From a virus: a DNA stretch of 30,124 bases. The notes beneath the pieces were generated by a model. It did not search any database, had not been told where the DNA came from, and saw only the letters and a program-made list of their open reading frames with translations. Positions 7,227 to 30,124 of the stretch are shown in pieces; within the stretch, counting starts at the first letter, position 1; each line of letters starts with the position of its first letter. The position numbers and the translations under genes were made by a program. The stretch is from IMG/VR virus record IMGVR_UViG_3300045988_119602, positions 1 through 30,124 of that record, one strand, 5' to 3'.

Positions 7227-7249
7227 GCTATACTAGGAAGGTAAGCTCT

Positions 7250-9547: not shown

Positions 9548-9579
9548 TAATGTGTCTTGAGTGAGTGAGTGATACAATG

Positions 9580-9627
9580 TTGGGTGTCTCCCCTATGGTG
9601 GTTGGGGGAGACACCCAATATTTTTTA
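9580..9627 (+). terminator. Rho-independent terminator after the major tail protein gene
   Basis: 14-bp perfect stem (ttgggtgtctcccc 9580-9593 / ggggagacacccaa 9605-9618), 11-nt loop, then tatttttta. Confidence 0.85.
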
Positions 9628-9660
9628 CCCATCACACCACCAGATGAGGGAGAAAACCTA

Positions 9661-10612: not shown

Positions 10613-10613
10613 C

Positions 10614-13600: not shown

Positions 13601-14480
13601 GCAGATGGGCTTGACCTCTGATGAGGCGGAACAGCTTATTCATTCGATTTACGCTATCCCAGATCGTGTGGATATTAATACTTGGGCGGATACTACGGCT
13701 GCACGTGTTATGACTTCGTTGAATAATGATATTGAGCGGATGCCACGCGAGGTTGTTATTGGTACGCAGGTGTTTGGTGTGGATGCGGCTACTGGTAAGC
13801 TGAAGTATTTGCGTGAGGCTAGTGATGCTGCGGGTGGGGATATAAATATTAATGCTCATGCTAATACGAATCAGGCAACAAGTGCGTTGAACGGTGTTAT
13901 TAATAATGCTAACCGTGTCCCTGGGTGGACTAGTACCACGGCATACGCGTATACTGGGCAAGCTAATTCTAATGTGAATAGCTACCGCTCTAATTTAGCG
14001 CAGATTCCGAGCACGAAAACAACACATCTACGTGTAGTGAGTGACTCATTTGACGCACCAGCAGGCAGAAGTTCTTTTAAGTGGCGTGCGCCACATGCAC
14101 ACGGCGGTATGGTACAAGGCTTTGCATCTGGCGGTGTTATCCCTGGGCGTGAGCCGCTGTCTCGGTGGACTGATAATGTGCCTGCTGTTACTGATGCTGG
14201 TTCGCCGCTCATGGTGCGTTCTGGTGAGTTTATTGTGAATGCTGATGCCACCCGTAGGCACCGGGGGCTTCTGGAGCGTATCAATTCGGGCGATTTTGTC
14301 AGGGGCTTCTCTGCTGGCGGGGCTGTGTCAGGTCGGCGCGAGTTTGTGGCACCTACACAAGCGCCTGACCTGTATAATCAGATAGTCGATGCGCTGTCGA
14401 ATTGGCGGCCTATGGTGAATATTGATGGGCGACAGTTCTACGGCACGATGCGTTCAACAACTTTGCAGGCACGGAGGTAA
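10614..14480 (+). CDS. Tail tape measure protein
   Basis: 1288 aa. It has the TP901-type core (ADFDKAMSQVQAAT....KYSGSEAANGIEELAKAG....GSVGDLGYALKQSG...), hydrophobic central segments and a C-terminal GGMVQGFASGGVIPG motif. Confidence 0.95.
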   Translation: MARTGGSRGGKSNAAQTVTIQLRADTKNFVAGVTAAANSARNAANQAARETAKATANAAKAAQAEATKGSAQSAAAAAREAGRAAAAAASTAARERVGVISGMTRAEKAAYREAAEAAKASAGSITGVMQNASRTASVGWRDYASAVKSSVSSAASAAGNAFKNSNFGSAVMYNQFTTGIRSAFSSAKDSVAGAFGAMADRGRAMVSSVGGYFRDLSNEARTLAKNILSNREALDHIATGAALGGAALTAGFGYAVKQYADFDKAMSQVQAATHETAGNMEKLRTAAMKAGADTKYSGSEAANGIEELAKAGVETKDILSGGLDGALALAAAGNIEVGEAAELAATAMTQFGLKGSDIGHVADLLAAGAGKAQGSVGDLGYALKQSGLVAAQTGLSIEETTGTLAAFASAGLVGSDAGTSFKVMLQKLQNPSKEAAGLMAEYGISLYNAEGKFKGITAVAGDLKRGLQNLTPAQRDAALATIFGSDAVRAANVLYTQGQEGIQGWIEKTNDAGYAASTAAIQQDNLAGDIEKLGGAIDSLILGSSGGFSTFFRGVVQMATSFIDVLSKVPAPIMAVNLGFIGISGAALLAVAAGAKLITSFQTIRATLATIRGAEAAGGVRATAAAVGEIGEHAERSESKLGRLGKGIGKVAAAAGIAANAIGLLGAATQHDLNISSVDSFTNSLANAGSGLGDINSAYINLSGQKSNFFMAEVPKINSMSDALLKVKASNENWWESMQQSGAQMLGWKTSVDLVNDTTKNLDESLGNLYKTNRDQATTTFREIVEQTNRLASETGKAGLSVDEYRQKFPELQKAVEEYATQLGVSLTDEEKYQAMMGNMPPKLQEAARAHEELQHKLEVQKNSLDEGSAAMQGLSGEAQEMAKWVEGAGSAVEDLDKGLKMLAGGFADSTKSMADYYKSMDDLSEAIQKNSAAYDGQTKTFDQTTKAGQKLNDAFAKMAQEGIQASSAVARQGGDYEAVKAHIHGVIDTLRQSALQMGLTSDEAEQLIHSIYAIPDRVDINTWADTTAARVMTSLNNDIERMPREVVIGTQVFGVDAATGKLKYLREASDAAGGDININAHANTNQATSALNGVINNANRVPGWTSTTAYAYTGQANSNVNSYRSNLAQIPSTKTTHLRVVSDSFDAPAGRSSFKWRAPHAHGGMVQGFASGGVIPGREPLSRWTDNVPAVTDAGSPLMVRSGEFIVNADATRRHRGLLERINSGDFVRGFSAGGAVSGRREFVAPTQAPDLYNQIVDALSNWRPMVNIDGRQFYGTMRSTTLQARR

Positions 14481-14485
14481 AAACC

Positions 14486-15337
14486 TTGAGTTCGTACCCT
14501 ATGATGATTGGACAGCAAGCCTCCTTTATGCAGGTACGAGGCGGCTCTACAGAGCAGGTGAACTACTCTTTCGCTAACCGCCAGGTGCAGCAGTCTGCTA
14601 CTGGTGCGCGTAGGTTTTCTTTCTATGGTCGCCCTCAGGCGCTAAAAGATTTCTCGGCTACATTCCGTGTTGCAGGTAAAGATCGTGAGAAAGTCGAAAT
14701 GATGCTCATGAACGCTGCTTATAATGTGCACAATTTGAGTACGTATTATCCTTTGACTATTTTTCCGGCAGGGTCTCAGGTTGAGAACCTGCTGACTGAG
14801 CGTGACTCTATGATGCTGCCTGCTGCTGTTAATGGCGGGGCTACACTTTCTGGTGGCGACGTTGATGAGTATGACCGATCTATTTTCTACCGCGATTTAT
14901 ATTCGGTAACTAAAAATGTACATATAGTGAATAACCAGCCATTGCCTTTCGGTAGACAAGAGTATAACTTCAGTGCCGTGCTATCGCCTGGTGCTACTAT
15001 AAATATTGCGATAGATATTGCTGGAGCCAAGACTATAACCTACACTCTTTCGCGTGGCTCGAATGATGGCTTATTTCCAACGCGCAAGGCAATCTGGTTT
15101 ACTCTTGACGCTAACCCGATCAGCTTTTCCGTTACCGCAATAGAAGGCGAACTTGGATACCCAAGCCTGACTACTGGTAGGGAGATGAAGGCGTGGACAC
15201 CTGGCAGGTGTATTCAGAATGTTGCGCTAACCGAGTTGTCTTCGCAGAAGCTTCGCGGTATGACTGGTATGCCACCTATTTATGAGTATCAGTGCAAGTT
15301 TATTGAAGTCGGAGCAGGTAGGGAAAAGGTTGTGTAA
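14486..15337 (+). CDS. Distal tail protein (Dit-like, putative)
   Basis: TTG 14486 lies 7 nt after GGAGGT. 283 aa, and the first gene after the tape measure. Confidence 0.55.
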   Translation: MSSYPMMIGQQASFMQVRGGSTEQVNYSFANRQVQQSATGARRFSFYGRPQALKDFSATFRVAGKDREKVEMMLMNAAYNVHNLSTYYPLTIFPAGSQVENLLTERDSMMLPAAVNGGATLSGGDVDEYDRSIFYRDLYSVTKNVHIVNNQPLPFGRQEYNFSAVLSPGATINIAIDIAGAKTITYTLSRGSNDGLFPTRKAIWFTLDANPISFSVTAIEGELGYPSLTTGREMKAWTPGRCIQNVALTELSSQKLRGMTGMPPIYEYQCKFIEVGAGREKVV

Positions 15338-17592
15338 TGAGGTCTGATTTTCCACCACCACAGGTTATAAAAACAGAGGCTGAGATAGCCAAACATGGTG
15401 TGACTGTTATCAACGCATCCGTAAGGATTGACGGCGTCGATAAGGGTATGCATGAGGTGACTATCAGCCAGTCTGCCTCTAAAGATGCGGCGGGTCGACT
15501 CGCCACTAATGATGGTTTCTCTAACTCGGGTGCTACTATTACGTGGGATTTGCCTATGGGTGCGACACCTGATTTTGTTAGCATGTCTGCTTCGGCTGAT
15601 CGCCCTGATTTTGCTGATAAATTTAGTATCCCTTATTTGGGTGATAAGGTAGAGATTTTTCTGCACAAGTCGCCAGCATCCAGCCCTAAACAGTACTACA
15701 GTAAAGTGTTTACCGGTACCGTATCCCTGAACCGTATCGACTCAAACACTGGCGGCCTGGTGACTGAATGTATAGACTATGCGGATAAGTTGTCGAAGGT
15801 TGTTGACGTGTTGCCGCTGTCGTACATTATGCCTGGTCGCCGCCGTACTGATAATATTCGTTTCTATCCTGGTGTGTCTCTGACATATTTTGTTTGGGAT
15901 ATTTTGGAGCAGTGCGGGTATTCGCCTGCTGCACGCTCGAAGCTGCCTAACGAGGACAATAAACAGGTTCTCCTGTATGCCCCGTTGCAGGGTAGCTACA
16001 TGTGTAACTGGCGGCGCGGGCACGGGCAGCTAATCGGCGCGTCTGGTGGTAGTAAGTGGGGCGATCAGTCGCAGCCTATATTTTACTATGATTTCAATGA
16101 GGGCACCTCATACCTGCATCAGGGGCACGCTACATATGAGACAGCGAATGGGCATAATAAGACGTATTCTAAGGGTCGCCCGCTAATTCTGCGTGGGAAG
16201 AATAGCAGGAATAGGTCTAATGAAGCGTGGATCAATATTTATTGTGAGCGCGGTAATGATAAGGACGCGGTGCGTTTCGGTATCCTCAAGGACGGGTCTA
16301 TCGCCCTGGATACTGTCGAGAAGAGCATGAAGCTGCAACCTGGTGCGCGTTTTGAACTGAAAATTGAGGGTAACCGTTGGCGTGTAGACCAAGAGAATGG
16401 CGAGTATGCTACCGGTACGCTGCCTGATACCAGGTTGCGTGACGGTGGTAACCTTTATGCTGTAGAGGTTTTCGCTGCGCCTGGTGGGCATATTTCTGAT
16501 GTGCTTCTGTTGAATGGTGATTTGCCGTTTCAGGATAGGGTTATGGCGCGTGTTGCTCCGCCTATGCATTCGCTATCACTGAATTTTTTCAGGTCTGTTC
16601 GCGGTCGTGTTGCACGGGAGGTTTTGCAGGAAGTCGCGGAATATTTCTCGTGTATGATGTGGCATGATGCTGACGGGTATCTGAATTTTATTAATGTCCC
16701 TAGGGAGATAAAAAACAAACCTAGAATGCGTATTGATGCGGATGAGATTATTTCTGCTGATGTTACGCAAGATTCATCTAAGATAGCGTCTGTGGTGAAC
16801 GTATCGTACAATGTTCCGCAGTTTTCGCGTATGGGTATTAGGGGTAATGATGCGCCAGTCGTGTTGTGGCAAGGCCCTGGTGGACAGCTTGCACCTAATG
16901 AGTCGCGTGAGACCTGGTTCTCCCCTGCAGATACAGAGGACTGGTTCGAGACTGATACGCAGCTAAATTATGACTTCTTCTATTTGTTTACGATAAACAG
17001 TGTCCCTAATACTGGTGCTGACCCGCAGCATGACGCGGCAATGCACAAAATGTACCACGGGTCTGTTGGTGAATACATGTGGCCTGCTGGCGCTACTGAA
17101 GCACAGTTTGAGCAGTATGTCGATGGCGTGAACCCGTTCCAGTTCATTCTGCGCGAGAAGAATTTGCAGCCTGGCTCTGTTATTGAGGCGCGTTTCCCTA
17201 CTCAACGTGAGGCGCACGGCATGATGGAGGATCTGGCAGGTAAGCCTACACCTATTATTCGTGGCGGCTTGAAGGTCGATTTTAGCGGGAATAGGAACAC
17301 GGCACATTACGACCAGCTTACTATCCCTCTTTCTATTCCTGCTCTCGAATTAGATGTTGGTGTTTGGGGCAATACTCCGCAGATTGCTATTAAGATTGCT
17401 GAGGATATTGCTACTATGGCGCGTTCTCGTATTCAGATTCCGAGTCTTACCATTTTTTTCCGTCCGGATATTAAAATTGGTGAGACGTATACTGTTGAAC
17501 TGCCTAGCGGTGGCAACCTGAATGTCATTATTACTGGTGTTAGTCATGTGCCAGCTGATAATCAGACGCGGCTAACATGCCGTGTCTTCTAA
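15337..17592 (+). CDS. Tail-associated / minor tail protein (Tal-like, putative)
   Basis: TAATG overlap with the upstream gene. 751 aa, and the second gene after the tape measure. Confidence 0.55.
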   Translation: MRSDFPPPQVIKTEAEIAKHGVTVINASVRIDGVDKGMHEVTISQSASKDAAGRLATNDGFSNSGATITWDLPMGATPDFVSMSASADRPDFADKFSIPYLGDKVEIFLHKSPASSPKQYYSKVFTGTVSLNRIDSNTGGLVTECIDYADKLSKVVDVLPLSYIMPGRRRTDNIRFYPGVSLTYFVWDILEQCGYSPAARSKLPNEDNKQVLLYAPLQGSYMCNWRRGHGQLIGASGGSKWGDQSQPIFYYDFNEGTSYLHQGHATYETANGHNKTYSKGRPLILRGKNSRNRSNEAWINIYCERGNDKDAVRFGILKDGSIALDTVEKSMKLQPGARFELKIEGNRWRVDQENGEYATGTLPDTRLRDGGNLYAVEVFAAPGGHISDVLLLNGDLPFQDRVMARVAPPMHSLSLNFFRSVRGRVAREVLQEVAEYFSCMMWHDADGYLNFINVPREIKNKPRMRIDADEIISADVTQDSSKIASVVNVSYNVPQFSRMGIRGNDAPVVLWQGPGGQLAPNESRETWFSPADTEDWFETDTQLNYDFFYLFTINSVPNTGADPQHDAAMHKMYHGSVGEYMWPAGATEAQFEQYVDGVNPFQFILREKNLQPGSVIEARFPTQREAHGMMEDLAGKPTPIIRGGLKVDFSGNRNTAHYDQLTIPLSIPALELDVGVWGNTPQIAIKIAEDIATMARSRIQIPSLTIFFRPDIKIGETYTVELPSGGNLNVIITGVSHVPADNQTRLTCRVF

Positions 17593-21746: not shown

Positions 21747-22550
21747 GTGGCTTATAAATATGTGACTAACCGTGATGCTAAGAATTTCACACCTAACTAT
21801 CTTGTCCAGTCAACATTTGGGTACCCGCGTGTTATCACGAACATCACATTACACTGGTGGGGTAAGCCTGAGTGGGGGCAGACCTGGGAGCAGGTCATGG
21901 CGTTCTTCTGTGACTCACCTACTGTTGGTACGAGTGCTCATGAGGTTATCTCTGACGATATCGTTGGATGCATTGTCGATCATTCTGCTGCGGCGTGGGC
22001 TAACGGTAACGCTAAGGGTAATGCTCAGAGTATTACACTGGAATGTAACCCGCGTATGAGCGAGGGTGATATAAATACTGTGGCTGAGCGTATCGCTGAC
22101 ATTTGGCGTGAGCAGGGGCGTATTATCCCGCTGACTGAACATCGGGATTGGTTCCCTACCGAATGCTCTGGCACGTGGAGCAAGGGCGAGATGACACGCC
22201 GAGCAATGGCATACTACAACGGGAGCGGTGGCTCTCAGAAAGATTGGTTTGATATGGCAACCAAGCAAGAACTAGAAGAAGTTGTTTTCAACACTAAGCG
22301 ACCTGAATTTGGTGGACGCACCCTAGCCGAAGCTGTGCGAGAGATCGACCAAAACACATGGGCTGGTGTGCGCATGGTGAAGGTGCTGTTTAATCAATTC
22401 CGTGTGGGTATCCCGCACCGCATGACTGATGGCTCTTTTGCCGCTGGTTTGCGTAAGATTTTCGGCTACACTGATGAAGCCCAGGGCGATGCGCGTAAGA
22501 CTGAGTTCGATCAGGACGCGCAGGCTATGTACCGTAACTTCCCTAACTAA
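21747..22550 (+). CDS. Endolysin, N-acetylmuramoyl-L-alanine amidase (amidase_2 / PGRP type) with an unknown C-terminal domain
   Basis: GTG follows GAGGAGG. Motifs are ITLHWWG.....TSAHEVISD..IVGCIVDHSAAAWANGN..GNAQSITLECNP and a later H..W..TECSG. Confidence 0.85.
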   Translation: MAYKYVTNRDAKNFTPNYLVQSTFGYPRVITNITLHWWGKPEWGQTWEQVMAFFCDSPTVGTSAHEVISDDIVGCIVDHSAAAWANGNAKGNAQSITLECNPRMSEGDINTVAERIADIWREQGRIIPLTEHRDWFPTECSGTWSKGEMTRRAMAYYNGSGGSQKDWFDMATKQELEEVVFNTKRPEFGGRTLAEAVREIDQNTWAGVRMVKVLFNQFRVGIPHRMTDGSFAAGLRKIFGYTDEAQGDARKTEFDQDAQAMYRNFPN

Positions 22551-22563
22551 GGAGAAAAAATAA

Positions 22564-23100
22564 ATGAGTAATGAACGTTACGCAGGAAACGTAACTAAGA
22601 CCGCGACTATGGGTGTTGCTATGGTTGGCGCTGTGATGACTATCCTAGTCTTTATCGCTGGCCGCTTTGGTATTGAGCTGCCTGGTGAAGTCCAGGCGGC
22701 TATTTCTACCCTTATTCTTGGAGCTACTGCGTATTTCTTTGGTCGCAACGCTGTTGGGGAAAAGGCTCATACTGAGGGTATCGTGTCTGATGCTGTTGAT
22801 TCGCACGTTAGTGAAGCTGTTTCCAAGGCGGTAGGGGCTGTTGATTTCTACGAAGCGTTGGAAGCTATCTCTCGCGGTGTTGTCGGTGATCCTGCGCCTG
22901 AGCATGTGTCCGAGGTGAAACCGAACCCTGCTGACTCTATGCGTGAGCAGTGGGAGAAGGAAGCTCTCGGTGGCCGCCAGTACCGCTACGGTGAGGAAGG
23001 CGCACCTGAGGGTGGCGCACCGGGGCAGATTTATGACCCGCGCGTTGGTTGGGTTGACGAAAATCCGGATCAGTTTCCGAGTGATTCTGTAGCCCGCTAA
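22564..23100 (+). CDS. Holin (putative, two TM segments)
   Basis: AAGGAG RBS. Two hydrophobic segments (MGVAMVGAVMTILVFIAG and AAISTLILGATAYFFG) are followed by an acidic tail. It lies immediately after the endolysin. Confidence 0.6.
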   Translation: MSNERYAGNVTKTATMGVAMVGAVMTILVFIAGRFGIELPGEVQAAISTLILGATAYFFGRNAVGEKAHTEGIVSDAVDSHVSEAVSKAVGAVDFYEALEAISRGVVGDPAPEHVSEVKPNPADSMREQWEKEALGGRQYRYGEEGAPEGGAPGQIYDPRVGWVDENPDQFPSDSVAR

Positions 23101-23106
23101 GTATGG

Positions 23107-23156
23107 AATTATCCCCCGCACCTGCCACATGATTTAGGTGCGGGGGATAATTTTGT
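23107..23156. terminator. Strong hairpin terminator between the convergent late (+) and accessory (-) units
   Basis: 17-bp perfect stem aattatcccccgcacct (23107-23123) / aggtgcgggggataatt (23136-23152) with a 12-nt loop. A T-run (ttttgttt) follows on the plus strand. Confidence 0.85.
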
Positions 23157-23217
23157 TTCGTCCGGAAACCAGAAAACAATACCTGAATCCATTATAGATA
23201 GTTTTGTTTACTTGGTA

Positions 23218-23463
23218 CTAATCCAGTATATCAGCTAATTTTACGTCTTGGTACTCGATTCGGTGTGATTTGTATTGCATATAGGCAGATAGTGCGTGCG
23301 GTACGAGCAAGGTAATGCCGATAATGGCGCATCCTGCTACGTATGCCATGTCTGCATAGAGGGTTTCTCCGATCATCGCGGATAGGATGTTTACGCATAA
23401 CAGGAATGCTGATAGCCCGAGCATTACCCAGCCGAATGTTGCAATATTTTTGGTGATTTTCAT
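23218..23463 (-). CDS. Small membrane protein (81 aa, 2-3 TM segments), unknown function
   Basis: ATG start. Hydrophobic segments are FGWVMLGLSAFLLCVNILSAMI and VAGCAIIGITLLV. It is the last gene of the minus-strand unit. Confidence 0.7.
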   Translation of the reverse strand: MKITKNIATFGWVMLGLSAFLLCVNILSAMIGETLYADMAYVAGCAIIGITLLVPHALSAYMQYKSHRIEYQDVKLADILD

Positions 23464-23475
23464 GAGTGTGCCTTT

Positions 23476-23622
23476 CTAGAGTGTGAGTTTTAGGATTACG
23501 AAGAACATGATCGCGGGCAGTGCTGCGAAGTAGTTTCCGAATATTGCGGCGATCGTGAAGCCGATAAACAGTAGCATGCACATTCCTACGAGTAGGTTGT
23601 AGCAGTATTCGCTGATTTTCAT
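23476..23622 (-). CDS. Tiny membrane protein (48 aa)
   Basis: ATG at 23622 follows AAGAAGGAG. The track start (TTG 23682) has no RBS. The hydrophobic core is LLVGMCMLLFIGFTIAAIFGNYFAALPAIMFFVIL. Confidence 0.5.
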   Translation of the reverse strand: MKISEYCYNLLVGMCMLLFIGFTIAAIFGNYFAALPAIMFFVILKLTL

Positions 23623-23624
23623 TT

Positions 23625-23843
23625 TTATAGACTCCTTCTTATTATTTTTAAGATTCTGTAATTGTTTTTGTAAAGTAGGCAAGAAAACGTAGTAGCAATA
23701 TTGTTTTCGTCAATAGCTTGAACTTTTGCAAATGTGCCAATCTTGCCAACTTCTACGTCGTATCTAATTATTTTAGATTGTGGCGCTTCTTTGTCTACTA
23801 TTCTTTGAATAAGCGATAGGTAGCTGTCTTTATTAATTAGAAT
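23625..23843 (-). CDS. Candidate 72-aa gene with no canonical start (possible ATT start, or -1-frame extension of the methylase)
   Basis: Hand translation gives (I)LINKDSYLSLIQRIVDKEAPQSKIIRYDVEVGKIGTFAKVQAIDENNIATTFSCLLYKNNYRILKIIRRSL. The frame is open from 23957 to the stop at 23627-23625, 2 nt before the next ATG. It contains no ATG/GTG/TTG. GGAAAGG lies 7 nt upstream of ATT 23843. Confidence 0.25.
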   Translation of the reverse strand: MLINKDSYLSLIQRIVDKEAPQSKIIRYDVEVGKIGTFAKVQAIDENNIATTFSCLLYKNNYRILKIIRRSL

Positions 23844-24328
23844 TTTACTACCTTTCCGTTTAGCCCTGATTTTTCTAGTATGTCTAGGTCTGAGTAAGTG
23901 TATGCGATAAGCACTGATGGGGCTGGTGCGGCGTGTTTTCCTTCTACTCCGCTTGAGTCAAAAAATTTTGTCCTGCCTGCTAGGAATAATGCTCCTTTTG
24001 CTACTGGGAATATGTGCTCGTGCCAGTAGCTTGTGTCTGTTCGTGCGAATATGAATGCTATTCCGGCGCCGCCGTTTTTAGCATGTTCTGCCATTTTCTG
24101 CATCCATTTGTCTATCCCTCTCCCATATGGAGGGTTCAGCCATACACGCCCATCCCAGCGCTGCACAAGACCATCTTCTAGCTCTGTGTATGTTTTCTTT
24201 GCGCCTACCCAGTCTCTATTCTCGATTGGGGATGCTGGATCTAGGTCAAACTCACCTAGTGGGTCAAGAATCCTTCGTGGTGTTAGCCACGTATCCGTTG
24301 CCTGAGCTTCCCTTTGCGGAATTGCCAT
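23837..24328 (-). CDS. Phage-type DNA N6-adenine methyltransferase (Dam family)
   Basis: ATG 24328 forms a TAATG overlap with the upstream gene and follows cgaaaggaaaag. Motifs are DTWLTPRRILDPLGEFDLDPA and the catalytic WLNPPYGR. The track extension to 24457 overlaps the preceding gene and was rejected. Confidence 0.85.
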   Translation of the reverse strand: MAIPQREAQATDTWLTPRRILDPLGEFDLDPASPIENRDWVGAKKTYTELEDGLVQRWDGRVWLNPPYGRGIDKWMQKMAEHAKNGGAGIAFIFARTDTSYWHEHIFPVAKGALFLAGRTKFFDSSGVEGKHAAPAPSVLIAYTYSDLDILEKSGLNGKVVKF

Positions 24329-24522
24329 TATTTCTTTTCCTTTCGGGTGTTCCATGCGACGTATTCGCGGGCGGCTAGTGCGGCGGCTGCCATTGCGAAG
24401 ATTCCGTATGCCATTTGTTCTGCGTCGAACTCCATAATGCTCAGGGTCGGGGTGCATACGATTACTGAGGCTGCAATGACTACTGCGCTAATGATTATTG
24501 CGGTGATGATTGCTTTTCCCAT
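24328..24522 (-). CDS. Small membrane protein (64 aa, two TM segments)
   Basis: ATG 24522 follows aaggaaaggaaaaggaa. Hydrophobic segments are AIITAIIISAVVIAASVIV and AYGIFAMAAAALAA. It is the first gene downstream of promoter cassette C. Confidence 0.65.
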   Translation of the reverse strand: MGKAIITAIIISAVVIAASVIVCTPTLSIMEFDAEQMAYGIFAMAAAALAAREYVAWNTRKEKK

Positions 24523-24547
24523 TTCCTTTTCCTTTCCTTGTACTTCT

Positions 24548-24594
24548 AGCGTATCACCCCCTACCGACTAAACCAAGCTGATAGAGGGTGATAT
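24548..24594 (-). promoter_or_regulatory. Inverted-repeat promoter cassette, copy C (minus orientation)
   Basis: The minus strand reads ATATCACCCTCTA tcagcTTGGTTtagtcgg TAGGGGGTGATACGCT. -35 TTGGTT is at 24576-24571, the spacer is 17 nt, TG is at 24556-24555 and -10 TACGCT is at 24553-24548. The ATG follows 25 nt downstream. Confidence 0.65.
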
Positions 24595-24603
24595 ATGTCA
24601 TAT

Positions 24604-24957
24604 TTAGTTATAGTATCTAGGAATGCGCTCCCGAATTAGTGCATCTACATCAGCAGGAAAGCCCTCAATGACATCAGCCTCCCAAGGCAATACGCTTAGA
24701 ATATCAACATATTTACTGGCATCCGTCATTGTAACTATAGCATTCGCTATGTTTTCCTCCGGAAGTTCAAACGTTGCTGCTGCTATAGGCTTGTTTTTCA
24801 TGTCGCCTCGTCGAGTGAATATTTCAACAGCACCACTAGCTAACCTACGGATTGTGTATATGAGCCTATCTTCATCTTGCTTACGCCTGTAGAGTACTAC
24901 AAGCTCTTTGTGATCGAAGCGGAATAGCAGATAAGGCGGCTCATGTTTATTGCCCAT
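24604..24957 (-). CDS. Hypothetical protein (117 aa), gene 4 of the ORFan operon
   Basis: ATG start with an 11-nt overlap with the upstream gene. I recognised no motif. Confidence 0.7.
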   Translation of the reverse strand: MGNKHEPPYLLFRFDHKELVVLYRRKQDEDRLIYTIRRLASGAVEIFTRRGDMKNKPIAAATFELPEENIANAIVTMTDASKYVDILSVLPWEADVIEGFPADVDALIRERIPRYYN

Positions 24958-25276
24958 TGTCTCGCTCTTCTAGAACCAGGTGGATAATTATGTCATGCCT
25001 GTTTCTGTTTACCAACTCTAGCCTTGTTTTAGAGCGTTGTACCTGTATTCCGTATCGCTTAAGCGCAATATTTATGAGGTCTTCTACTTGCTGTGTGCGC
25101 CATACGATCTTTGAGGTGCGCGGCATATCGTACTCGTCGAGCACCTGCGTGATTGCCGAGTAGTGCGCGTATGAGTTTTTGAATGCTGCCTGCGATAGGC
25201 GGGATGTGTCTAGCGCGGCGGTGTTGCCTATGACTTTTACGGTTATTACGTGGTGGAGAATGTTTTTATTACTCAT
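24947..25276 (-). CDS. Hypothetical protein (109 aa), gene 3 of the ORFan operon
   Basis: ATG 25276 follows GAGGCGAAAG, with an 8-nt overlap with the upstream gene. Confidence 0.7.
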   Translation of the reverse strand: MSNKNILHHVITVKVIGNTAALDTSRLSQAAFKNSYAHYSAITQVLDEYDMPRTSKIVWRTQQVEDLINIALKRYGIQVQRSKTRLELVNRNRHDIIIHLVLEERDNGQ

Positions 25277-25556
25277 CTTTCGCCTCGATTGAGAATTGGA
25301 TGTCTGCGTATTTTTCTGCGGGCTGTTTTCCGTCTGGTACGACTCGTACTATACAGTCCTCAAATGCGGCTTCCATGGCATCCCATGAAGCTAGACGGAT
25401 GGTTAGGCGGCTAGAGTATGACTTGAGGAATGTTAGCTCTTTCAGTGCGTTTTCTAGGCGTGTATGCTCTTCAAAGGTTAGGCCTGTTGTGTTAGCAGGC
25501 TTTACCTCGACAGTACCATCTTTGCTTACTGTGGGTTGTAGGCTGATTTTACGCAT
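25269..25556 (-). CDS. Hypothetical acidic protein (95 aa), gene 2 of the ORFan operon
   Basis: ATG 25556 with an 8-nt overlap with the upstream gene. Confidence 0.65.
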   Translation of the reverse strand: MRKISLQPTVSKDGTVEVKPANTTGLTFEEHTRLENALKELTFLKSYSSRLTIRLASWDAMEAAFEDCIVRVVPDGKQPAEKYADIQFSIEAKDE

Positions 25557-25830
25557 CGAATCTCACTACTTTCTGCTGTGCGATTTCGTAGCGCAGATCA
25601 GCGATTAGGTTGTCGAGTGAGGTGTGTAGGATGAATTTCATTGCTCGTGCATAGCCTCGCTGTTTAGCGTGGATGCCGTTTCCTGCGATTGTGGTGTACT
25701 TTTCGGCAACTTTTTTGGCGGTTGCGCATGAGCAGTATTTGCCGTACTGGCGGAATACCTTAGTGAGCTTTTGCGCTAGGTGCTCGAATGTGTCGGCGTG
25801 AATCAGAATGTATTTCATGTATTTAATCAT
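25549..25830 (-). CDS. Hypothetical protein (about 89-101 aa), gene 1 of the ORFan operon
   Basis: The frame is open from TTG 25854. ATG candidates are at 25830 and 25818. None has a clear SD, so the start is uncertain. Confidence 0.55.
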   Translation of the reverse strand: MIKYMKYILIHADTFEHLAQKLTKVFRQYGKYCSCATAKKVAEKYTTIAGNGIHAKQRGYARAMKFILHTSLDNLIADLRYEIAQQKVVRFDA

Positions 25831-25911
25831 GGCATTACATGGGTCGAAGCGCAAGCTGATTTTGTGTGTTTATTGTCACATATACATCAGGTGTATCTTC
25901 CTGCACTTGAG

Positions 25912-25920
25912 TGGTATACT
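25912..25920 (+). promoter_or_regulatory. Candidate extended -10 promoter for the replication/early block
   Basis: TGgTATACT (TG at 25912-25913, TATACT at 25915-25920) has the same TGnTAyryT form as the three cassette promoters. The -35 (TGTATC) is poor. Confidence 0.35.
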
Positions 25921-25926
25921 GGATAA

Positions 25927-25958
25927 CGAAAAAGCCCCCGAGGCGAAAGCCTCGGAGG
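25927..25958 (-). terminator. GC-rich hairpin with a GAAA tetraloop. It reads as an intrinsic terminator on the minus strand (stem + CTTTTTCG) and as a 5'-UTR stem-loop on the plus strand.
   Basis: cccccgaggc (25935-25944) gaaa gcctcggagg (25949-25958) gives 7 perfect bp plus 2 more after one mismatch. An A5 run at 25929-25933 precedes it on the plus strand, which is a T5 run after it on the minus strand. Confidence 0.4.
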
Positions 25959-25999
25959 CAATTCCGGAAAGGAAAATAAGAAACAGAAAGGATGTCCCA

Positions 26000-26965
26000 G
26001 TGGATATTATACACCATTTCGACTACCAACACTCTTTCACCATGGTACCAAACCAAATCCTGCGCGATTCAAGGCTTTCATGGGGTGCGCGCGGGCTTAT
26101 GGCGTTCATCGTTGCGCAGAAGCCTGGATACTCACTCTCGCGCCAAGAATTGATCGAAGCATCACGTATGGGGCGCATGGGAGTGAAATCTCTAATCGAT
26201 GAATTGCAAGAGCTAGGGTATCTGGAAATTTCGCAGTCTCGCGAGGGCGGCAAATTTGGTTCTTCGACCATGGTTGCGAAGCTCCCAAGTGTCTCACATA
26301 GTGAGCCGTTGTCAGGTTTACCGACAGCGGTTGAACCATCGACGGTTTCGCTGCATACTCCTCTTAATACTAAAGTTATTAATAATACTAATTTACCCCC
26401 TATAGTCCCCCATGGGGATGATGTGGCTTGCGCCACAGAGACGTTACGCGCTGGCGCGCTCACTGATTGTGATGAACTCGAAACTGAGGCGATCTTGAAA
26501 ATCAAGCCTGATACTCGTCAGCATTGGCGAAAAGCTGGCGAAGCAGTCCAGGTATCCAACGTTAATACCCCCCAGAAGCCTCAGGACGCCCCTCTAAGCG
26601 ATTTTGATACGTTTTGGGCACTGGTTCCCAGGCGGGTAGGAAAAAAGGCGGCAGAGCGCGCCTGGAGGGCTGTAGAGCGACGTGGTGAGTCATTCGAGGC
26701 TATCGAGGGCATGCGGGCATACGCAGCAGCATTCGCACAGAGCGGCACAGAGCTGAAATATGTTCCTCACCCGTCCACCTGGCTCAATCGTCGCGGATGG
26801 GAGGACGACCTAGCGGCAGTATTCCCCTCTCGGAAGCCACAGGTGACCGAATGGGAGCAAAAAGCGGCTCAAATGGGTTACGACCTATCCGCCCTAAAAA
26901 GCGCCCCGCAAATCGCCGCACAGCGCTTTGAAGAAAATCGAAAGGAAATTACCCAATGGAGCTAA
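26000..26965 (+). CDS. Replication initiation / replisome-organiser-like protein with an N-terminal winged-helix domain
   Basis: GTG 26000 lies 7 nt after GAAAGGA, and ATG 26041 is an alternative. The N-terminus is VPNQILRDSRLSWGARGLMAFIVAQKPGYSLSRQELIEASRMGRMGVKSLIDELQELGYLEI. The C-terminal FDTFWALVPRRVGKKAAERAW.....YVPHPSTWLNRRGWEDD resembles phage replication/DnaD-like organiser motifs as I recall them. The track start at 25808 overlaps the divergent gene and was rejected. Confidence 0.55.
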   Translation: MDIIHHFDYQHSFTMVPNQILRDSRLSWGARGLMAFIVAQKPGYSLSRQELIEASRMGRMGVKSLIDELQELGYLEISQSREGGKFGSSTMVAKLPSVSHSEPLSGLPTAVEPSTVSLHTPLNTKVINNTNLPPIVPHGDDVACATETLRAGALTDCDELETEAILKIKPDTRQHWRKAGEAVQVSNVNTPQKPQDAPLSDFDTFWALVPRRVGKKAAERAWRAVERRGESFEAIEGMRAYAAAFAQSGTELKYVPHPSTWLNRRGWEDDLAAVFPSRKPQVTEWEQKAAQMGYDLSALKSAPQIAAQRFEENRKEITQWS

Positions 26966-27504
26966 ATACAATGCGAGCGCTCTACATGATCGCCGCCGGG
27001 CTAGATCAGCGCCTAAAGCCACTGCCCGATGAAATCCTTATGGTGTGGGCAGAGATTTGCGCGGAGGTGCCAGACAAGTACGCCCGCGAGGTGCAAAAGA
27101 GGCTTTATTCAACACGGCGCATATCCATACTCCAGCCTGGGGATATTTTGGAGACCTGGCAGGAAATGAAGGCCGAGATTGACGGTGCGCTTGGAAGGTG
27201 CTCGCGCCTCGCAGCCAAATTCAAGTCTCTTGAAATTGAGGATAAGCAGGATTACGAGGCTGCTGTACGCGTGTATGAGTCATGGAAGCGAGCATATGCT
27301 GCTGTACCTGAGTTTGTGCGCAGTGAGGTTGATTTGCGTGTCTTGAGTGCCCCGTGTGCGCCGCGTGAGATTGAATCCGTTCCGCCGCCGCCTGAGTTGC
27401 GGGCGCTTGTGCGTAGCTTTGGCAAGACAGAGACAGGTTCTATGCGTCGTGGCGTGGTGGAGCGTGAGCGTGATAGGCAGATGCGAGCACTAGAGAATAT
27501 GTGA
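26956..27504 (+). CDS. Hypothetical protein (182 aa) in the replication block
   Basis: ATG follows cgaaaggaaatt, with a 10-nt overlap with the upstream gene. I recognised no motif. Confidence 0.7.
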   Translation: MELNTMRALYMIAAGLDQRLKPLPDEILMVWAEICAEVPDKYAREVQKRLYSTRRISILQPGDILETWQEMKAEIDGALGRCSRLAAKFKSLEIEDKQDYEAAVRVYESWKRAYAAVPEFVRSEVDLRVLSAPCAPREIESVPPPPELRALVRSFGKTETGSMRRGVVERERDRQMRALENM

Positions 27505-27512
27505 TGCACCTC

Positions 27513-27554
27513 ATGCAAAATCAGCTTTGCATTACTGGTATTGCATGATACACT
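27513..27554 (+). promoter_or_regulatory. Candidate promoter with an overlapping 7-bp inverted repeat
   Basis: The inverted repeat is ATGCAAA (27513-27519) n6 TTTGCAT (27526-27532). -35 TTGCAT is at 27527-27532, the spacer is 16 nt, TG is at 27546-27547 and -10 TACACT is at 27549-27554. The ATG is at 27584. Confidence 0.45.
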
Positions 27555-27583
27555 TGAGGTATCGAACGAGAGGAAAGAAGAAA

Positions 27584-27979
27584 ATGAGCGAAACACTCGA
27601 AGGCGCAATCAGCCTAACCTACCGCCAGGACAAAAAAGCCGCATGGGTAGAACTACTGGAAGACATGCCCTTTGTAAAAGATTCCGAGAGCGGCAAAAAG
27701 GTAGTAGAAGCCACCGAAAGCTTCATAAAGAATGGGCTTGCGCGAGTGCAGGTCGAAGACGGCACCGTGTTCGATTCGTCGCGGTACTGGCAGCAGATTA
27801 TCGATGGGCACCAGGAAATTATCAAGTCCCTAGAGAAGTATCTAGCCAAAGAATTAGCTGAGCTTGTACCAGACGGGCATGAACTAGCCCTAACCGAGGT
27901 GGCTGTGTACCGCGCCTATGTTGGTGAGGAATTTTGCACAGTCGAGGATTACGAGGTAGGCACGCGCAAAGTATCCTAA
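27584..27979 (+). CDS. Hypothetical acidic protein (131 aa)
   Basis: ATG 27584 follows GAGGAAAGAAG. The track start at 27527 lies inside the promoter region. Confidence 0.7.
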   Translation: MSETLEGAISLTYRQDKKAAWVELLEDMPFVKDSESGKKVVEATESFIKNGLARVQVEDGTVFDSSRYWQQIIDGHQEIIKSLEKYLAKELAELVPDGHELALTEVAVYRAYVGEEFCTVEDYEVGTRKVS

Positions 27980-28353
27980 TGAAAGTAGTCATTGAGATAC
28001 CGGATAGCCATCCGCTGCTGTCGATAAATAAGCTAATGTCTGAGCATTGGCGCACTAGACAGAAATCGTCCAAATACTGGCGACAGGCAGGGTATGAGGC
28101 AGTGAAAGACTCACCACCCTTGGAGCCACCAGTCACATGTAATGTGTATATTTACCGTCCACGCGCCGGTCGGTACGACCCTGGTAATTACTACCCAACA
28201 GCCAAAGCCATCATAGACGGGATGATAGATGCGGGGATGCTTCCAGATGACTCATTCGAGTATCTGGATGGCGCACACCTCCACCACGGAGGAATAGACA
28301 GAGAAAACCCGAGGCTTGAAATATTTTTCAGCCCATACGAAAGGAAGAAATAA
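27979..28353 (+). CDS. rusA: RusA-like Holliday junction resolvase
   Basis: TAATG overlap with the upstream stop. 124 aa. SINKLMSEHWRTRQK and YDPGNYYPTAKAIIDGMIDAGMLPDDSFEYL fit the RusA pattern (D..N...K...D.l...g...DD). Confidence 0.7.
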   Translation: MKVVIEIPDSHPLLSINKLMSEHWRTRQKSSKYWRQAGYEAVKDSPPLEPPVTCNVYIYRPRAGRYDPGNYYPTAKAIIDGMIDAGMLPDDSFEYLDGAHLHHGGIDRENPRLEIFFSPYERKK

Positions 28354-28676
28354 TGTCCGATCTGCAAGATTTGCGTGTAGCACTCAAGAATATTCAGCTG
28401 CTTGCTGATGAACTCACGGATAAGAATATTGGGCACCTTGAAGACCTGCATGACGAGGTTGACCGCATTCGTGAAATGATTTCGCCTGATAATCCGGAGA
28501 ATATTATTAGCACTCTATTGACTGTCCGAGAGGTTGCAGAGATGGAGGAAATGACTCCGAACGGTGTGCGTAAGGCTTGCGCATCTGGTAAGTTGAAGCC
28601 GTTTAGGACTTCTGGCAATGATCGGCTTTTTGACCCGCAAGATGTATATGAATGGTCGAACATTAGGGATATTTAG
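28353..28676 (+). CDS. Excisionase/MerR-type helix-turn-helix DNA-binding protein
   Basis: TAATG overlap with the upstream stop. The C-terminal LLTVREVAEMEEMTPNGVRKACASGKLKPFRTSGNDRLFDPQDVYEW fits the HTH_17-like pattern. Confidence 0.55.
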   Translation: MSDLQDLRVALKNIQLLADELTDKNIGHLEDLHDEVDRIREMISPDNPENIISTLLTVREVAEMEEMTPNGVRKACASGKLKPFRTSGNDRLFDPQDVYEWSNIRDI

Positions 28677-28685
28677 TGATATATT

Positions 28686-28729
28686 TCACCCCCTCCCAGC
28701 TTGGTTTAATTGGTAGGGGGTGATACACT
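28686..28729 (+). promoter_or_regulatory. Inverted-repeat promoter cassette, copy B
   Basis: Reads TCACCCCCT cccagcTTGGTTtaattggt AGGGGGTGATACACT. -35 TTGGTT is at 28701-28706, the spacer is 17 nt, TG is at 28721-28722 and -10 TACACT is at 28724-28729. The ATG follows 26 nt downstream. Confidence 0.6.
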
Positions 28730-28755
28730 AGAGATATAGGAAAGGAAAAGAAAAA

Positions 28756-29262
28756 ATGACAGTAGGATACCTACTCCAAAACAGGTTCACAGGAAAAACA
28801 CTGCGAGTAATCACAGCCTTAGACGGGAAAAGCTACCTGGTAGCAAAAGACATTGACGAAATGTTCTTCAATGAGCAAGGACACTCGCGTACGCTAAAGG
28901 CACTCAAGCCAGGTGCTATACGCAAGAAATTCTCGCTACCTAAGAAGCTCGCAGCAAATGAACGCACGCGCAAGCTAACAGTGATAACAACAGAAGATTT
29001 ACTGGGCGCAACCGGGAAGCTGCGAGACGCAAGCACAGCACAGGCTATACAAGACTTCTGTCTAGTCTTCAATGTTTTCATGATCGGCATAACCCATGAA
29101 GCCAAGGTAAAGTCTCGGAAGCATGACGGTAAATGGTATGCAGATTGCAGCGTGTGCGGAACCATGAAACCTATGAACACGCACCAAGGGATCGTGCAAG
29201 CATCTGATGCGCACGTCAAGAAATTTCACCAATTCAAACTAGTAGCAACGGCGGTAATCTAA
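28756..29262 (+). CDS. Hypothetical protein with a possible Bro-N/antirepressor-like N-terminal domain
   Basis: ATG follows aggaaaggaaaagaaaaa. The N-terminal LRVITALDGKSYLVAKDIDEMF weakly resembles Bro-N (iR.i...g.pwFvakDv). The domain call is low confidence. Confidence 0.6.
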   Translation: MTVGYLLQNRFTGKTLRVITALDGKSYLVAKDIDEMFFNEQGHSRTLKALKPGAIRKKFSLPKKLAANERTRKLTVITTEDLLGATGKLRDASTAQAIQDFCLVFNVFMIGITHEAKVKSRKHDGKWYADCSVCGTMKPMNTHQGIVQASDAHVKKFHQFKLVATAVI

Positions 29263-29263
29263 A

Positions 29264-29635
29264 ATGGCTGGAAAAGAATACACAACCCACTGCGGTACAT
29301 GCGGGTGCCCGCGTGAGGAAAGAACAAAGGGGTGCACGCAGTGCAACAACCGGCACCGCAAATGGAAAATCGTAGGCGACATACGATATAAAGCACCAGA
29401 ACCACCTAAATGTAAAGGGTGTGGAATTGACATGTCGGAAATAAATCCAGACTGCTCAATTTGCCGCAAGAGGCAGGAGAAACGCAAGTATAAGGAAGAG
29501 CGAATAACAGACCCTAACGAGTATCGCAGCACTGAGCTAACTAAACGGTACTACGAAGTATGGGTGCAAGCGCGGCGCGAGCGCATCGCAAGGAATCAGG
29601 GTCTACTAGCTGCTGGGAGACGACCAATTGTCTAA
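29264..29635 (+). CDS. Double zinc-ribbon protein with a basic C-terminal tail
   Basis: Cys clusters are HCGTCGC-x9-CTQC and CKGC-x11-CSIC, followed by a KRQEKRKYKEER basic stretch. Confidence 0.65.
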   Translation: MAGKEYTTHCGTCGCPREERTKGCTQCNNRHRKWKIVGDIRYKAPEPPKCKGCGIDMSEINPDCSICRKRQEKRKYKEERITDPNEYRSTELTKRYYEVWVQARRERIARNQGLLAAGRRPIV

Positions 29636-30023
29636 CAACTACCAAGAAATCGACGGACACAAGCTAACTGATTTCATTCATGAGCTTCCATTTTATCTAG
29701 GAAATATCATGAAATATGCGTGGCGTGCACCGCACAAGAATGGGATTGACGACACTATAAAGCTTCTGGACTATCTGGATATGTCGCATTATGGATGGGT
29801 CAATTACGATCTGTCGGATAGGGCGACAACGATTCTTTCTGAGATTTCTAGCTGCGATTTTTACGGTAAAACATCTGGCGCGGATAACGTTCACAGGAAA
29901 TGCATAGCGAGTGTTGCTGAGTGGATTTTGAATAGCGAAGGCTCAGGTGGAATAGACTATAAGTCTCAAAAAAATCTAATTTTATCTGTGGCTTCTTTGC
30001 AGGTTAACTTATTCAATAAATAA
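29628..30023 (+). CDS. DUF3310-like phage protein
   Basis: TTG start 8 nt after GGGAGA. The motif FYLGNIMKYAWRAPHKNGIDDTIKLLDYL matches the DUF3310 signature (gn.iKY..R...K.g..eDl.Ka..Yl) as I remember it. Confidence 0.55.
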   Translation: MSNNYQEIDGHKLTDFIHELPFYLGNIMKYAWRAPHKNGIDDTIKLLDYLDMSHYGWVNYDLSDRATTILSEISSCDFYGKTSGADNVHRKCIASVAEWILNSEGSGGIDYKSQKNLILSVASLQVNLFNK

Positions 30024-30032
30024 ATGTAGCAA

Positions 30033-30079
30033 ATATCACCCTCTATTGGCTTGGTTTAGTCGGTAGGGGGTGATATACT
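30033..30079 (+). promoter_or_regulatory. Inverted-repeat promoter cassette, copy A (drives gene 52-516 and probably the structural operon)
   Basis: Reads ATATCACCCTCTA ttggcTTGGTTtagtcgg TAGGGGGTGATATACT. -35 TTGGTT is at 30051-30056, the spacer is 17 nt, TG is at 30071-30072 and -10 TATACT is at 30074-30079 (= nt 4-9). The ATG follows 42 nt downstream (30122 = 52). Confidence 0.65.
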
Positions 30080-30124
30080 ATAAATGTAGCCAGGAAGGGC
30101 TACACAACGAAAGGAAAGAAAATG

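Follow-up and report, generated by a model that had tools for sequence, protein, structure and literature searches.

A repeated hairpin-promoter cassette heading the gene blocks of a small siphovirus-like phage: a probable counterpart of the promoter-early stem-loop cassettes of T4-type phages

Introduction

The viral contig IMGVR_UViG_3300045988_119602 (30,124 nt, analysed at its full length and referred to below as the window) carries, in front of several of its gene blocks, copies of an intergenic inverted repeat that has promoter-like boxes in its interior. This locus raises the question of what such a repeat does: does it start transcription, does it fold in the transcripts that run through it, does it bind a regulator, and do its copies allow the blocks that they head to be exchanged? 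On balance we consider it probable that the cassette is a composite unit of hairpin, promoter and Shine-Dalgarno (SD) sequence, which works in the manner of the promoter-early stem-loop (PeSL) cassettes of T4-type phages and arose independently in a small phage.

To our knowledge, promoter/stem-loop cassettes that double as recombination hot spots have been demonstrated essentially in T4-type phages only, and we know of no established explanation for the repeats of actinobacteriophages (SAS/ESAS and others). The lineage described here is a compact case, with four to six copies per ~30 kb, some 20 sequenced relatives, strand-biased pairing, and footprints of exchange that include recE/recT. If the proposed reading is correct, hairpin-plus-promoter modules would represent a convergent way in which phages insulate and shuffle their gene blocks, they would provide a testable model for the start-associated repeats of actinobacteriophages, and they could supply short, strong promoter/SD parts for use in Rothia and related oral actinobacteria.

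Copies and anatomy of the cassette

The three copies that a first-pass annotation of the window had recognized were borne out both by reading of the sequence and by a 40-nt degenerate pattern, which has exactly three sites, at 30036-30075(+) (cassette A), 28686-28725(+) (cassette B) and 24591-24552(-) (cassette C), and none in 100 shuffles. Cassettes A and C differ at 4 of 47 positions, as had been claimed, and each of the three cassettes contains the -35 hexamer TTGGTT, a 17-nt spacer and an extended -10, which reads TGATATACT in A, TGATACACT in B and TGATACGCT in C (Table 1). The distance from the -10 to the ATG is 42 nt (A), 26 nt (B) and 25 nt (C), and the ribosome-binding site is indeed common to the three, with the SD GAAAGGAAA preceding every start. 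The latter is the general strong SD of this genome (7 sites versus 0.1 expected), and it also precedes genes that are not headed by a cassette (24336-44, 25967-75 and 26940-48).

Two elements of the earlier description required revision. The arms had been given as 13 nt, while as RNA they form a stem of 15-19 bp with an 8-nt loop when G·U pairs are counted; in copy B, the outer stem is perfect over just ~9 bp. Furthermore, the count of three cassette-headed blocks is too low, because a fourth, diverged copy (cassette D, 27499-27561(+)) is present, and because the contig has probably lost cassette-flanked genes in assembly, as discussed below.

The conserved unit is the entire intergenic region of ~75-100 nt between stop codon and ATG. 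It consists, in this order, of the upstream stop, ~12 AT-rich bases, the inverted repeat, TAYACT, ~8 conserved bases, a leader of one of two types, and the ATG. The short leader is CACTAGAGATACAAGGAAAGGAAAAGAA; the long leader is TACTATAAATGTAGCCAGGAAGGGCTACACAACGAAAGGAAAGAAA, in which the predicted 5' end forms a separate 6-bp hairpin that in the case of cassette A may act as a 5'-end stabilizer.

Distribution among relatives

Approximately 20 IMG/VR contigs encode terminases that are 94-96% identical to that of the window, and the cassette is present in all of them; seven of these relatives are contigs of ~31-32 kb with terminal overlaps. From this group, 42 distinct cassette copies were collected, which align over 64 columns with zero gaps and from which a hidden Markov model (HMM) was built. 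The 42 copies share descent, and the counts of alignment cells given below are thus counts of non-independent events. Searches with the HMM (nhmmer) returned five strong copies and a weaker sixth, equivalent to cassette D, for each complete relative, and the cassettes of the relatives always lie between a stop codon and a co-directional start.

When the whole of IMG/VR was scanned with a loose pattern, matches were confined to this phage group. Relatives whose terminases are 33-56% identical, actinobacterial prophages and Rothia phage Spartoi all lacked a match to the HMM, and therefore no deeper conservation can be claimed. Scans of the window with Rfam (gathering thresholds) and for tRNAs found nothing. 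We conclude that the cassette is a real, lineage-wide regulatory unit.

Pairing of the inverted repeat

In the alignment of the 42 copies, columns 11-27 pair with columns 36-52, and the 8-nt loop is the -35 region; the stem encloses the -35, and its 3' arm is overlapped by the extended -10 (TGATAYACT). Paired cells amount to 90.5%, a fraction that falls to 42-55% if the 3' partner is displaced by 1-3 columns, and neither the covariation score nor the percentage paired was reached in any of 500 shuffles. Compensatory changes were observed as CCACC/GGTGG in one copy and CCCTAT/ATAGGG in another, while the column pair 19/44 is occupied by UA (14 copies), CG (12), UG (12) and CA (2).

The first-pass annotation had offered a symmetric operator and a hairpin in read-through RNA as alternatives. 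The hairpin part of this proposal fits the data better and the symmetric operator fits them less well, since pairing is biased towards the sense strand. Cells that deviate from Watson-Crick pairing comprise 96 G·U versus 15 A·C, and the mean fold energy of the 42 copies is -25.2 kcal/mol in sense versus -18.2 kcal/mol in antisense, the sense fold being the better one in 41 of them. The corresponding values are -31.8 (z -7.0) versus -16.7 kcal/mol for cassette A and -24.5 versus -16.7 kcal/mol for cassette C. Cassettes A, B and C together span -23.5 to -31.8 kcal/mol (z -3.3 to -7.0); the fold of cassette D is weak (-14.9 kcal/mol, z -0.6).

In the inner stem of both arms, an invariant G stands opposite a freely varying C/T. 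Cassette D retains pairing with other sequence (TCATGCAA/TTGCATGA), the changes in its left arm being mostly transitions that yield G·U, and it follows the same sense-strand trend as the main class. Both cassette classes conserve the TCA of the left arm opposite the TGA of the extended -10, although this TCA has no promoter role. This pattern is better explained by selection for a hairpin in sense-strand read-through RNA than by selection for a symmetric DNA operator, given the sense bias, the pairing kept in D, and the fact that operator half-sites would be 30 bp apart.

An operator, whether alone or in addition to the hairpin, is unlikely in our estimation, though it is the strongest of the competing explanations. 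It would require a phage-encoded dimeric regulator that binds the 12-13 bp arms and switches all cassette promoters together; the HTH_17 protein (28353-28676) and the Cys-rich protein (29264-29635) would be the candidates, cassette D would answer to a second regulator, and the arrangement could coexist with a role for the hairpin. The position of the arms, from -52 to -36 and from -27 to -11, suits this proposal, as a protein bound there would occlude polymerase. Similarly, the outer arms TCACCC and GGGTGA are near-invariant in the 42 copies, beyond the needs of pairing, the arms occur nowhere else in the genome, an HTH gene lies directly upstream of cassette B in every relative, and it is not obvious how blocks of early type and structural blocks, with identical strong promoters, would otherwise be controlled in time. 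However, complementarity runs on to the 8-nt loop instead of forming two short half-sites, and a distance of ~30 bp between half-site centres is unusual for HTH dimers. DNA recognition also does not predict the G·U bias or the better sense fold, and differing self-complementary arm variants are present in one genome (3300007091_000004, with CCACC/GGTGG beside CCCTC/GAGGG). Finally, the Cys-rich protein matches no regulator-type family in Pfam (Ogr/Delta included, E <= 0.01) or PHROGs.

With respect to the RNA hairpin that we prefer, Rho-independent terminators are similar in being GC-rich hairpins soon after a stop codon that are more stable in sense, and different in that the U-tract after the stem is missing in all cassette copies; a terminator scan does not list the cassettes. 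As the phage has U-tailed terminators elsewhere, it is doubtful that the cassette hairpin is an efficient intrinsic terminator. Most likely its role would be attenuation, 3'-end protection or processing of the upstream transcripts.

Two U-tailed hairpins of the window are worthy of description. The first, at 9576-9630, has an 18-bp stem followed by TTTTT after a major-tail-like gene (8993-9547), and would be an intrinsic terminator or attenuator inside the structural operon. The second, at 23105-23160, is a 20-bp perfect hairpin (GGAATTATCCCCCGCACCTG / CAGGTGCGGGGGATAATT) followed by TTTGTTT between the convergent structural and leftward blocks, and has the form of a canonical bidirectional terminator.

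Promoter elements

The -10 hexamer TA[CT][AG]CT is invariant in the 42 copies, and TG is present two bases upstream in 41 of them, so that TGn stands directly before TAnnnT, as in an extended -10. The -35 hexamer always starts with TT[G/T] (variants TTGGTT, TTGTTT, TTGATA, TTTACT and TTGCTT), and its distance from the -10 is 17 nt in all 42 copies, with no indel; a few further copies beyond the 42 have 1-nt loop indels, resulting in spacers of 16 or 18 nt. The base located 7 nt past the -10, which is the predicted +1, is a purine in every one of the 42. Before the hairpin, cassettes A, B and C and the consensus alike are rich in A+T (75-83%, columns 1-12). Despite its different stem, cassette D has the same 17-nt spacer and the same TGATACACT, together with a -35-like TTTGCA (TTTACA in one relative). 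The promoter before the replication gene, which is not part of a cassette, likewise contains TGnTATACT in the window and in relatives. Promoter activity of the cassette is a well-supported prediction from these features.

The promoter region of the replication gene (25912-25959) has a hairpin of its own: the extended -10 TGGTATACT precedes a hairpin with a GAAA tetraloop (GCCCCCGAGGC GAAA GCCTCGGAGGC). Both relatives that were compared have this hairpin in identical form, and its minus strand resembles a U-tailed terminator.

The boxes would be incidental if the cassette were solely an RNA element of polycistronic transcripts, that is, an RNase III-type processing or 3'-protection hairpin combined with a translation leader. 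This explanation, which we consider improbable, would account for the sense-strand bias in pairing, and the location of all cassettes between co-directional genes makes read-through transcripts plausible. The leader and SD are also conserved as much as the putative -10, so that conservation of TAYACT is no specific proof of a promoter. The geometry is, moreover, similar to that of the ESAS, in which 17-bp imperfect inverted repeats precede an SD-region motif (PMC3203893), and the explanation is close to the translation-linked reading of SAS/ESAS. On the other hand, a loop needs no fixed sequence, yet TT[G/T] is kept 17 nt from TAnnnT throughout the 42 copies, and the -35 variants TTGATA, TTTACT and TTTACA drift toward the consensus and not at random. 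The recurrence of TGnTATACT at the independent replication-gene promoter, the AT-rich stretch upstream of the hairpin and the constant purine at the predicted +1 also argue for a promoter, and there is no other candidate promoter near the 23-kb structural operon.

A composite unit and the points against it

In the composite unit that we favour, the primary-sigma RNA polymerase of the host would use the extended -10 TGATAYACT, the weak -35 TTGnTT 17 nt upstream and the AT-rich stretch beyond it. Transcription would start at the purine ~7 nt past the -10 and yield a leader, either short or long with a 5' hairpin, that bears the strong SD GAAAGGAAA. In a read-through transcript, the same 47 nt may fold into the hairpin of 15-19 bp and ~-25 kcal/mol, for which the pairing is seen in the alignment and the role is proposed. 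Situated 8-16 nt past the upstream stop, this hairpin might attenuate read-through or stabilize or define the 3' end, by which each block would be insulated. Over evolutionary time, the ~100-nt near-identical units may serve as portable homology: the footprints described in the next section are observed, and the presumed mechanism is recombination between cassettes that moves, deletes, replaces and possibly inverts blocks. The RecE/RecT pair, encoded between two cassettes in relatives, may help in this, and a block that moved would retain its own promoter and SD.

Several points weigh against such a unit. The near-invariance of the outer stem could reflect sequence-specific protein recognition rather than pairing alone, and covariation in the inner stem is weak, with A·C at columns 25/38 about as frequent as by chance. 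Owing to the relatedness of the copies, the pairing counts do not represent independent events, and no copy has a T-run after its stem. A generic sigma-70 (E. coli-type) promoter scan lists none of the cassettes, because their -35 matches the consensus at 3/6 positions only; a weak -35 combined with an extended -10 is usual in actinobacterial promoters. The window itself ends inside cassette A, which is compatible with repeat-driven misassembly, and misassembly of this kind in metagenomes could mimic some of the rearrangements described below. Finally, both the promoter and the hairpin function are deduced from sequence only.

Cassettes and module exchange

As the first-pass annotation had anticipated, the cassette is found at different module junctions in relatives. 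The order of cassettes in most of these is C(-), D, B, X1, X2, A, where X1 heads a RecE/YqaJ exonuclease and X2 heads a 107-aa gene followed by RecT. The RecE/YqaJ and RecT genes thus form cassette-headed sets in relatives (e.g., L091, IMG/VR 3300008304_000001, 14087-16280), and both are absent from the window as assembled.

The cassette cores are not position-specific, in that copies from the same position are no more alike than copies from different positions. Between genomes, cores at the same position are on average 7.65/40 apart and cores at different positions 7.72/40; for different positions of a single genome, the average is 7.26/40. In 76 of 2000 permutations, the within-genome distance was at or below the observed value. 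Identical 40-mers are present at different junctions, the inverted one included: cassette C of one genome equals X2 and X1 of two others, and C equals X2 inside a single genome. Whether a leader is short or long does not depend on the gene that it precedes.

In most genomes, it is RecE that is headed by the cassette following the DUF3310 gene; three genomes have a 65-aa gene in this place and one has X2, while in the window the structural block takes it. The case of X2 is contig 3300045988_130229, in which a segment of ~1.2 kb from the cassette to the small-terminase homologue matches X2 + RecT in length. One junction hybrid reaches into the first codons (MEKATY fused to TTRTEAIE). In a 25-kb contig (L023/L100, IMG/VR 3300006545_000010), the replication module has been turned round with respect to the structural genes, a cassette marks the junction, and RecT lies directly before the small-terminase homologue. 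A 58.5-kb contig (L021/L029/L097/L102, 3300006261_000005) consists of two different relatives concatenated. Each of these last two contigs could be a real rearrangement or the product of repeat-driven misassembly.

It had been suggested that recombination between copies could delete, excise or invert modules. Arrangements of the deletion, replacement and inversion type that are bounded by cassettes do exist, in metagenome assemblies, and they are the footprints expected if cassettes recombine. They provide good comparative evidence that the cassette may be a recombination hot spot.

We dismiss as very improbable that the repeats are mobile DNA (MITE-like) or attC-like folded sites for a dedicated recombinase: their inverted-repeat structure, the better fold of one strand and the gain and loss of the gene-sized cassettes between them bear a superficial resemblance to integron attC sites, but no integrase, transposase or serine recombinase is among the window proteins identified by Pfam or PHROGs, the orientation is tied to the downstream start with a fixed distance to SD/ATG, no target-site duplications were seen, and crossover footprints fall anywhere in the ~100-nt homology, first codons included (the MEKATY/TTRTEA hybrid), as is typical of homologous recombination.

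The contig end at cassette A

Positions 1-54 of the window are exactly identical to 30071-30124, which gives a circularized contig of 30,070 bp with cassette A on the overlap, heading the gene at 52. In cassette A, this overlap begins exactly with the TG of the -10 and ends exactly with the ATG, which is the stretch that two long-leader cassettes would have in common, and a random cut point would not fall there. Logan contig L120 (run ERR589680) is 100% identical to window 28719-30099, i.e., to the B block from cassette to cassette. Its right end lies 29-30 nt into the overlap stretch, and its left end lies inside cassette B, although B shares no 30-mer with the other window copies; these breakpoints suggest that further cassette copies were present in the sample.

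Among relatives that share the upstream context, 3300045988_137377 and L145 are the closest. In the former, two long-leader cassettes with 74 exact nt in common, as a direct repeat, flank a 2.5-kb block composed of the MAQKYT gene, X2 and RecT, and the order of the MAQKYT and X2 cassettes is the same in L145. The block containing RecT is present in all complete relatives. A metagenome search for an 18-mer diagnostic of the junction upstream of cassette A matched one genuine relative (L145), the other 15 matches being due to chance, and no independent contig across the DUF3310-to-structural junction of the window was found.

The position of the overlap in cassette A, the breakpoints of L120 and the cassette-flanked block of the relatives make it likely that the window is a repeat-bounded, possibly falsely circularized contig that lacks ~2.3-2.5 kb, in which case cassette A would be a merger of two copies. 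The alternative is a genuine cassette-mediated deletion. As a practical warning, cassettes of this kind break and falsely circularize metagenome assemblies.

A far-reaching joint reading may be formulated, in which insulated, plug-and-play blocks are shuffled at their cassettes by RecE/RecT and the window is a natural deletion derivative without recE/recT. Blocks would then be deleted, replaced, inverted and perhaps excised as mini-circles at high frequency, and the recombination genes themselves would be among the mobile cargo. We regard this combination as rather doubtful; were it true, modular shuffling of the PeSL type would extend from T4-like myoviruses to small actinobacterial siphoviruses.

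Comparison with known repeats

The resemblance to the promoter-plus-stem-loop cassettes of T4-type phages, to which the first-pass annotation had drawn attention, agrees in anatomy with the published description of PeSLs in T4-type myoviruses (Arbiol et al. 2010, PMC2839356; Comeau et al. 2014, PMC4122927). A PeSL is an intergenic repeat of ~100 bp with an AT-rich stop region, a sigma-70-type promoter, a G·T-containing stem-loop over its boxes, an SD and a start (PMC2839356). The unit described here is likewise a repeated intergenic stretch of ~100 nt from a stop codon to the SD/start of the next gene, with many copies per genome, and at the sequence level it has a -35/-10 promoter inside and a stable stem-loop that overlaps the boxes. 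In both systems, indels and replacements between close relatives are cassette-bounded with chimeric cassettes at the junctions, which in the present case is seen in metagenome assemblies.

The differences are equally evident. No sequence homology is apparent, as judged without direct alignment to the PeSL consensus. The genomes compared here are of 30-32 kb, siphovirus-like and from phages of Actinobacteria, as opposed to myovirus genomes of 170-250 kb from phages of Gram-negative hosts. The present hairpin encloses the whole -35 and extends into the -10. Our cassettes head every major unit, the 23-kb structural operon and recE/recT among them, whereas PeSLs mainly head ORFans in hyperplastic regions. 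Promoter activity, terminator activity and mini-circles have been shown experimentally for PeSLs (PMC2839356, PMC4122927), whose stem-loops overlapping the promoter boxes did terminate in reporter assays (PMC2839356); for the cassettes of this lineage, such activities are predictions. As phage type, host phylum and sequence differ, the cassette is best regarded as a non-homologous, convergent analogue of the PeSL and not as a member by descent.

Among actinobacteriophages, the SAS/ESAS repeats have been reported for Cluster K mycobacteriophages (Pope et al. 2011, PMC3203893) and Cluster EF Microbacterium phages (Jacobs-Sera et al. 2020, PMC7302621). The SAS is a 13-bp motif (GGGATAGGAGCCC) at the ribosome-binding position, for which a role in translation was proposed and no embedded -35/-10 was described; the ESAS, immediately upstream of the SAS, consists of imperfect 17-bp inverted repeats with a 4-13 bp spacer (PMC3203893). 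They resemble the present cassettes in being cluster-specific and in having a conserved SD-region motif before the starts of varied gene families, with inverted repeats upstream (of a subset of SAS); the function of SAS/ESAS is not established experimentally. The motifs themselves differ, GGGATAGGAGCCC and GGGAAAGGACCCC contrasting with GAAAGGAAA here, and the 13-bp SAS motif is not that of the cassette. The arms of ~17 bp and the 8-nt loop are comparable to ESAS geometry, but here a -10 hexamer and a 15-35 nt leader separate the repeat from the SD, and the inverted repeat contains part of a full extended -10 promoter, the rest of which follows it.

The start-associated palindromes of Cluster O mycobacteriophages and Cluster EG Microbacterium phages are of 17-18 bp, with 7-8 bp arms and a 2-3 bp spacer; they are present in 8-34 copies, partly intragenic and inconsistent in orientation, and resemble protein-binding sites (PMC4351075, PMC7302621). 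Although they are also cluster-specific dyad repeats in short intergenic gaps before start codons, they are not promoter-containing hairpins. SAS/ESAS and the Cluster O/EG repeats are the nearest that have been described, and none of them is described as promoter-containing.

The phage, its host and its gene blocks

The window is the genome of a small, siphovirus-like tailed phage with a capsid, terminase and lysin of actinobacteriophage type. The capsid and terminase resemble Micrococcales phage/prophage proteins, and the catalytic part of the lysin shares 74.8% identity with lysin A of Rothia phage Spartoi. The IMG identifiers of the samples that yielded close relatives resemble those of the Human Microbiome Project series, which we take to indicate their origin. 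These three lines suggest that the host is probably an oral actinobacterium, Rothia. Megablast of window 23000-30124 found no DNA-level relative among cultured phages.

The gene blocks and the positions of the cassettes are collected in Table 1. The rightward genes also include a replication initiator and a 182-aa protein. The proteins of the window that could be named by Pfam/PHROGs belong to replication, RusA, Dam, HTH and structural families, while the 168-aa protein of the B block has zero Pfam or PHROGs matches.

Table 1. Positions of the cassettes, their elements and the principal genes in the 30,124-nt window
Feature	Position	Strand	Remarks
Cassette A, whole unit	30024-30124	+	DUF3310 gene stop (30023) to ATG 30122 (= position 52); nhmmer 62 bits
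Cassette A, hairpin	30033-30076	+	19-bp stem including G·U; TTGGTT 30051-30056 in loop
Cassette A, extended -10 TGATATACT	30071-30079	+	= window 1-9; predicted start G 30086 (= 16)
Cassette A, leader hairpin GTAGCC-AGGAAG-GGCTAC	30086-30103	+	= window 16-33
Cassette A, SD GAAAGGAAA	30109-30117	+	= window 39-47
Cassette B	28677-28755	+	Hairpin 28684-28725; nhmmer 67 bits; -23.5 kcal/mol
Cassette B, promoter/leader		+	-35 28701-28706; TGATACACT 28721-28729; predicted start ~28736; SD 28740-28748; ATG 28756
Cassette C	24523-24603	-	Hairpin 24593-24552; nhmmer 69.5 bits
Cassette C, promoter/leader		-	-35 24576-24571; TGATACGCT 24556-24548; predicted start ~24541; SD 24536-24528; ATG 24522
Cassette D (diverged)	27499-27583	+	Heads 27584-27979; same layout, other stem; kept in all relatives
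Cassette D, stem	27511-27518 / 27541-27548	+	TCATGCAA paired with TTGCATGA
Cassette D, promoter		+	-35-like TTTGCA 27526-27531; TGATACACT 27546-27554; ATG 27584
Block headed by A	52-23100	+	Structural and lysis genes; 23-kb operon
Beta-solenoid repeat gene (variable)	52-516	+	First gene of A block
Large terminase	1106-2644	+	A block
Capsid	6156-7226	+	A block, which also holds portal
Tape measure	10614-14480	+	A block
Amidase	21747-22550	+	A block
Block headed by C	24522-23218	-	64-aa membrane protein, Dam methyltransferase, two small membrane proteins
Dam methyltransferase	24328-23837	-	C block
Four small ORFs	25854-24604	-	Leftward block
Block headed by D	27584-28676	+	131-aa protein (27584-27979), RusA-like resolvase, HTH_17 protein
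RusA-like resolvase	27934-28353	+	D block
HTH_17 protein	28353-28676	+	D block
Block headed by B	28756-30023	+	168-aa protein, 123-aa Cys-rich protein, 131-aa DUF3310 protein
123-aa Cys-rich (zinc-ribbon-like) protein	29264-29635	+	B block

Some further features of the genome were noted. In the first gene of the A block, 18-nt tandem repeats at 218-307 encode hexapeptide beta-solenoid (YdcK-like) repeats. Both the repeat number and the entire gene are highly variable among relatives, two of which lack the gene, and an exact look-up of its protein gave no match. The Dam-family methyltransferase gene is an indel, being present only in the window and in contig 3300008485_000004, with ~260 bp in its place in other relatives. 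The replication-initiator ORF (25808-26965) probably starts at GTG 26000, upstream of which lies the SD AAAGGA; an ATG start at 25808 would run into the divergent leftward gene. The start of the gene that follows the major capsid gene is spanned by a 20-nt inverted repeat (7243-7262 / 7347-7366), the arms of which are 90% complementary and separated by 84 nt. Finally, an AT skew of 0.32-0.44 (A over T) at 3001-5000 and 10001-11000 coincides with repeated CAGCAAGCCGCCGC-type stretches in the portal gene, the gene following it and the start of the tape-measure gene.

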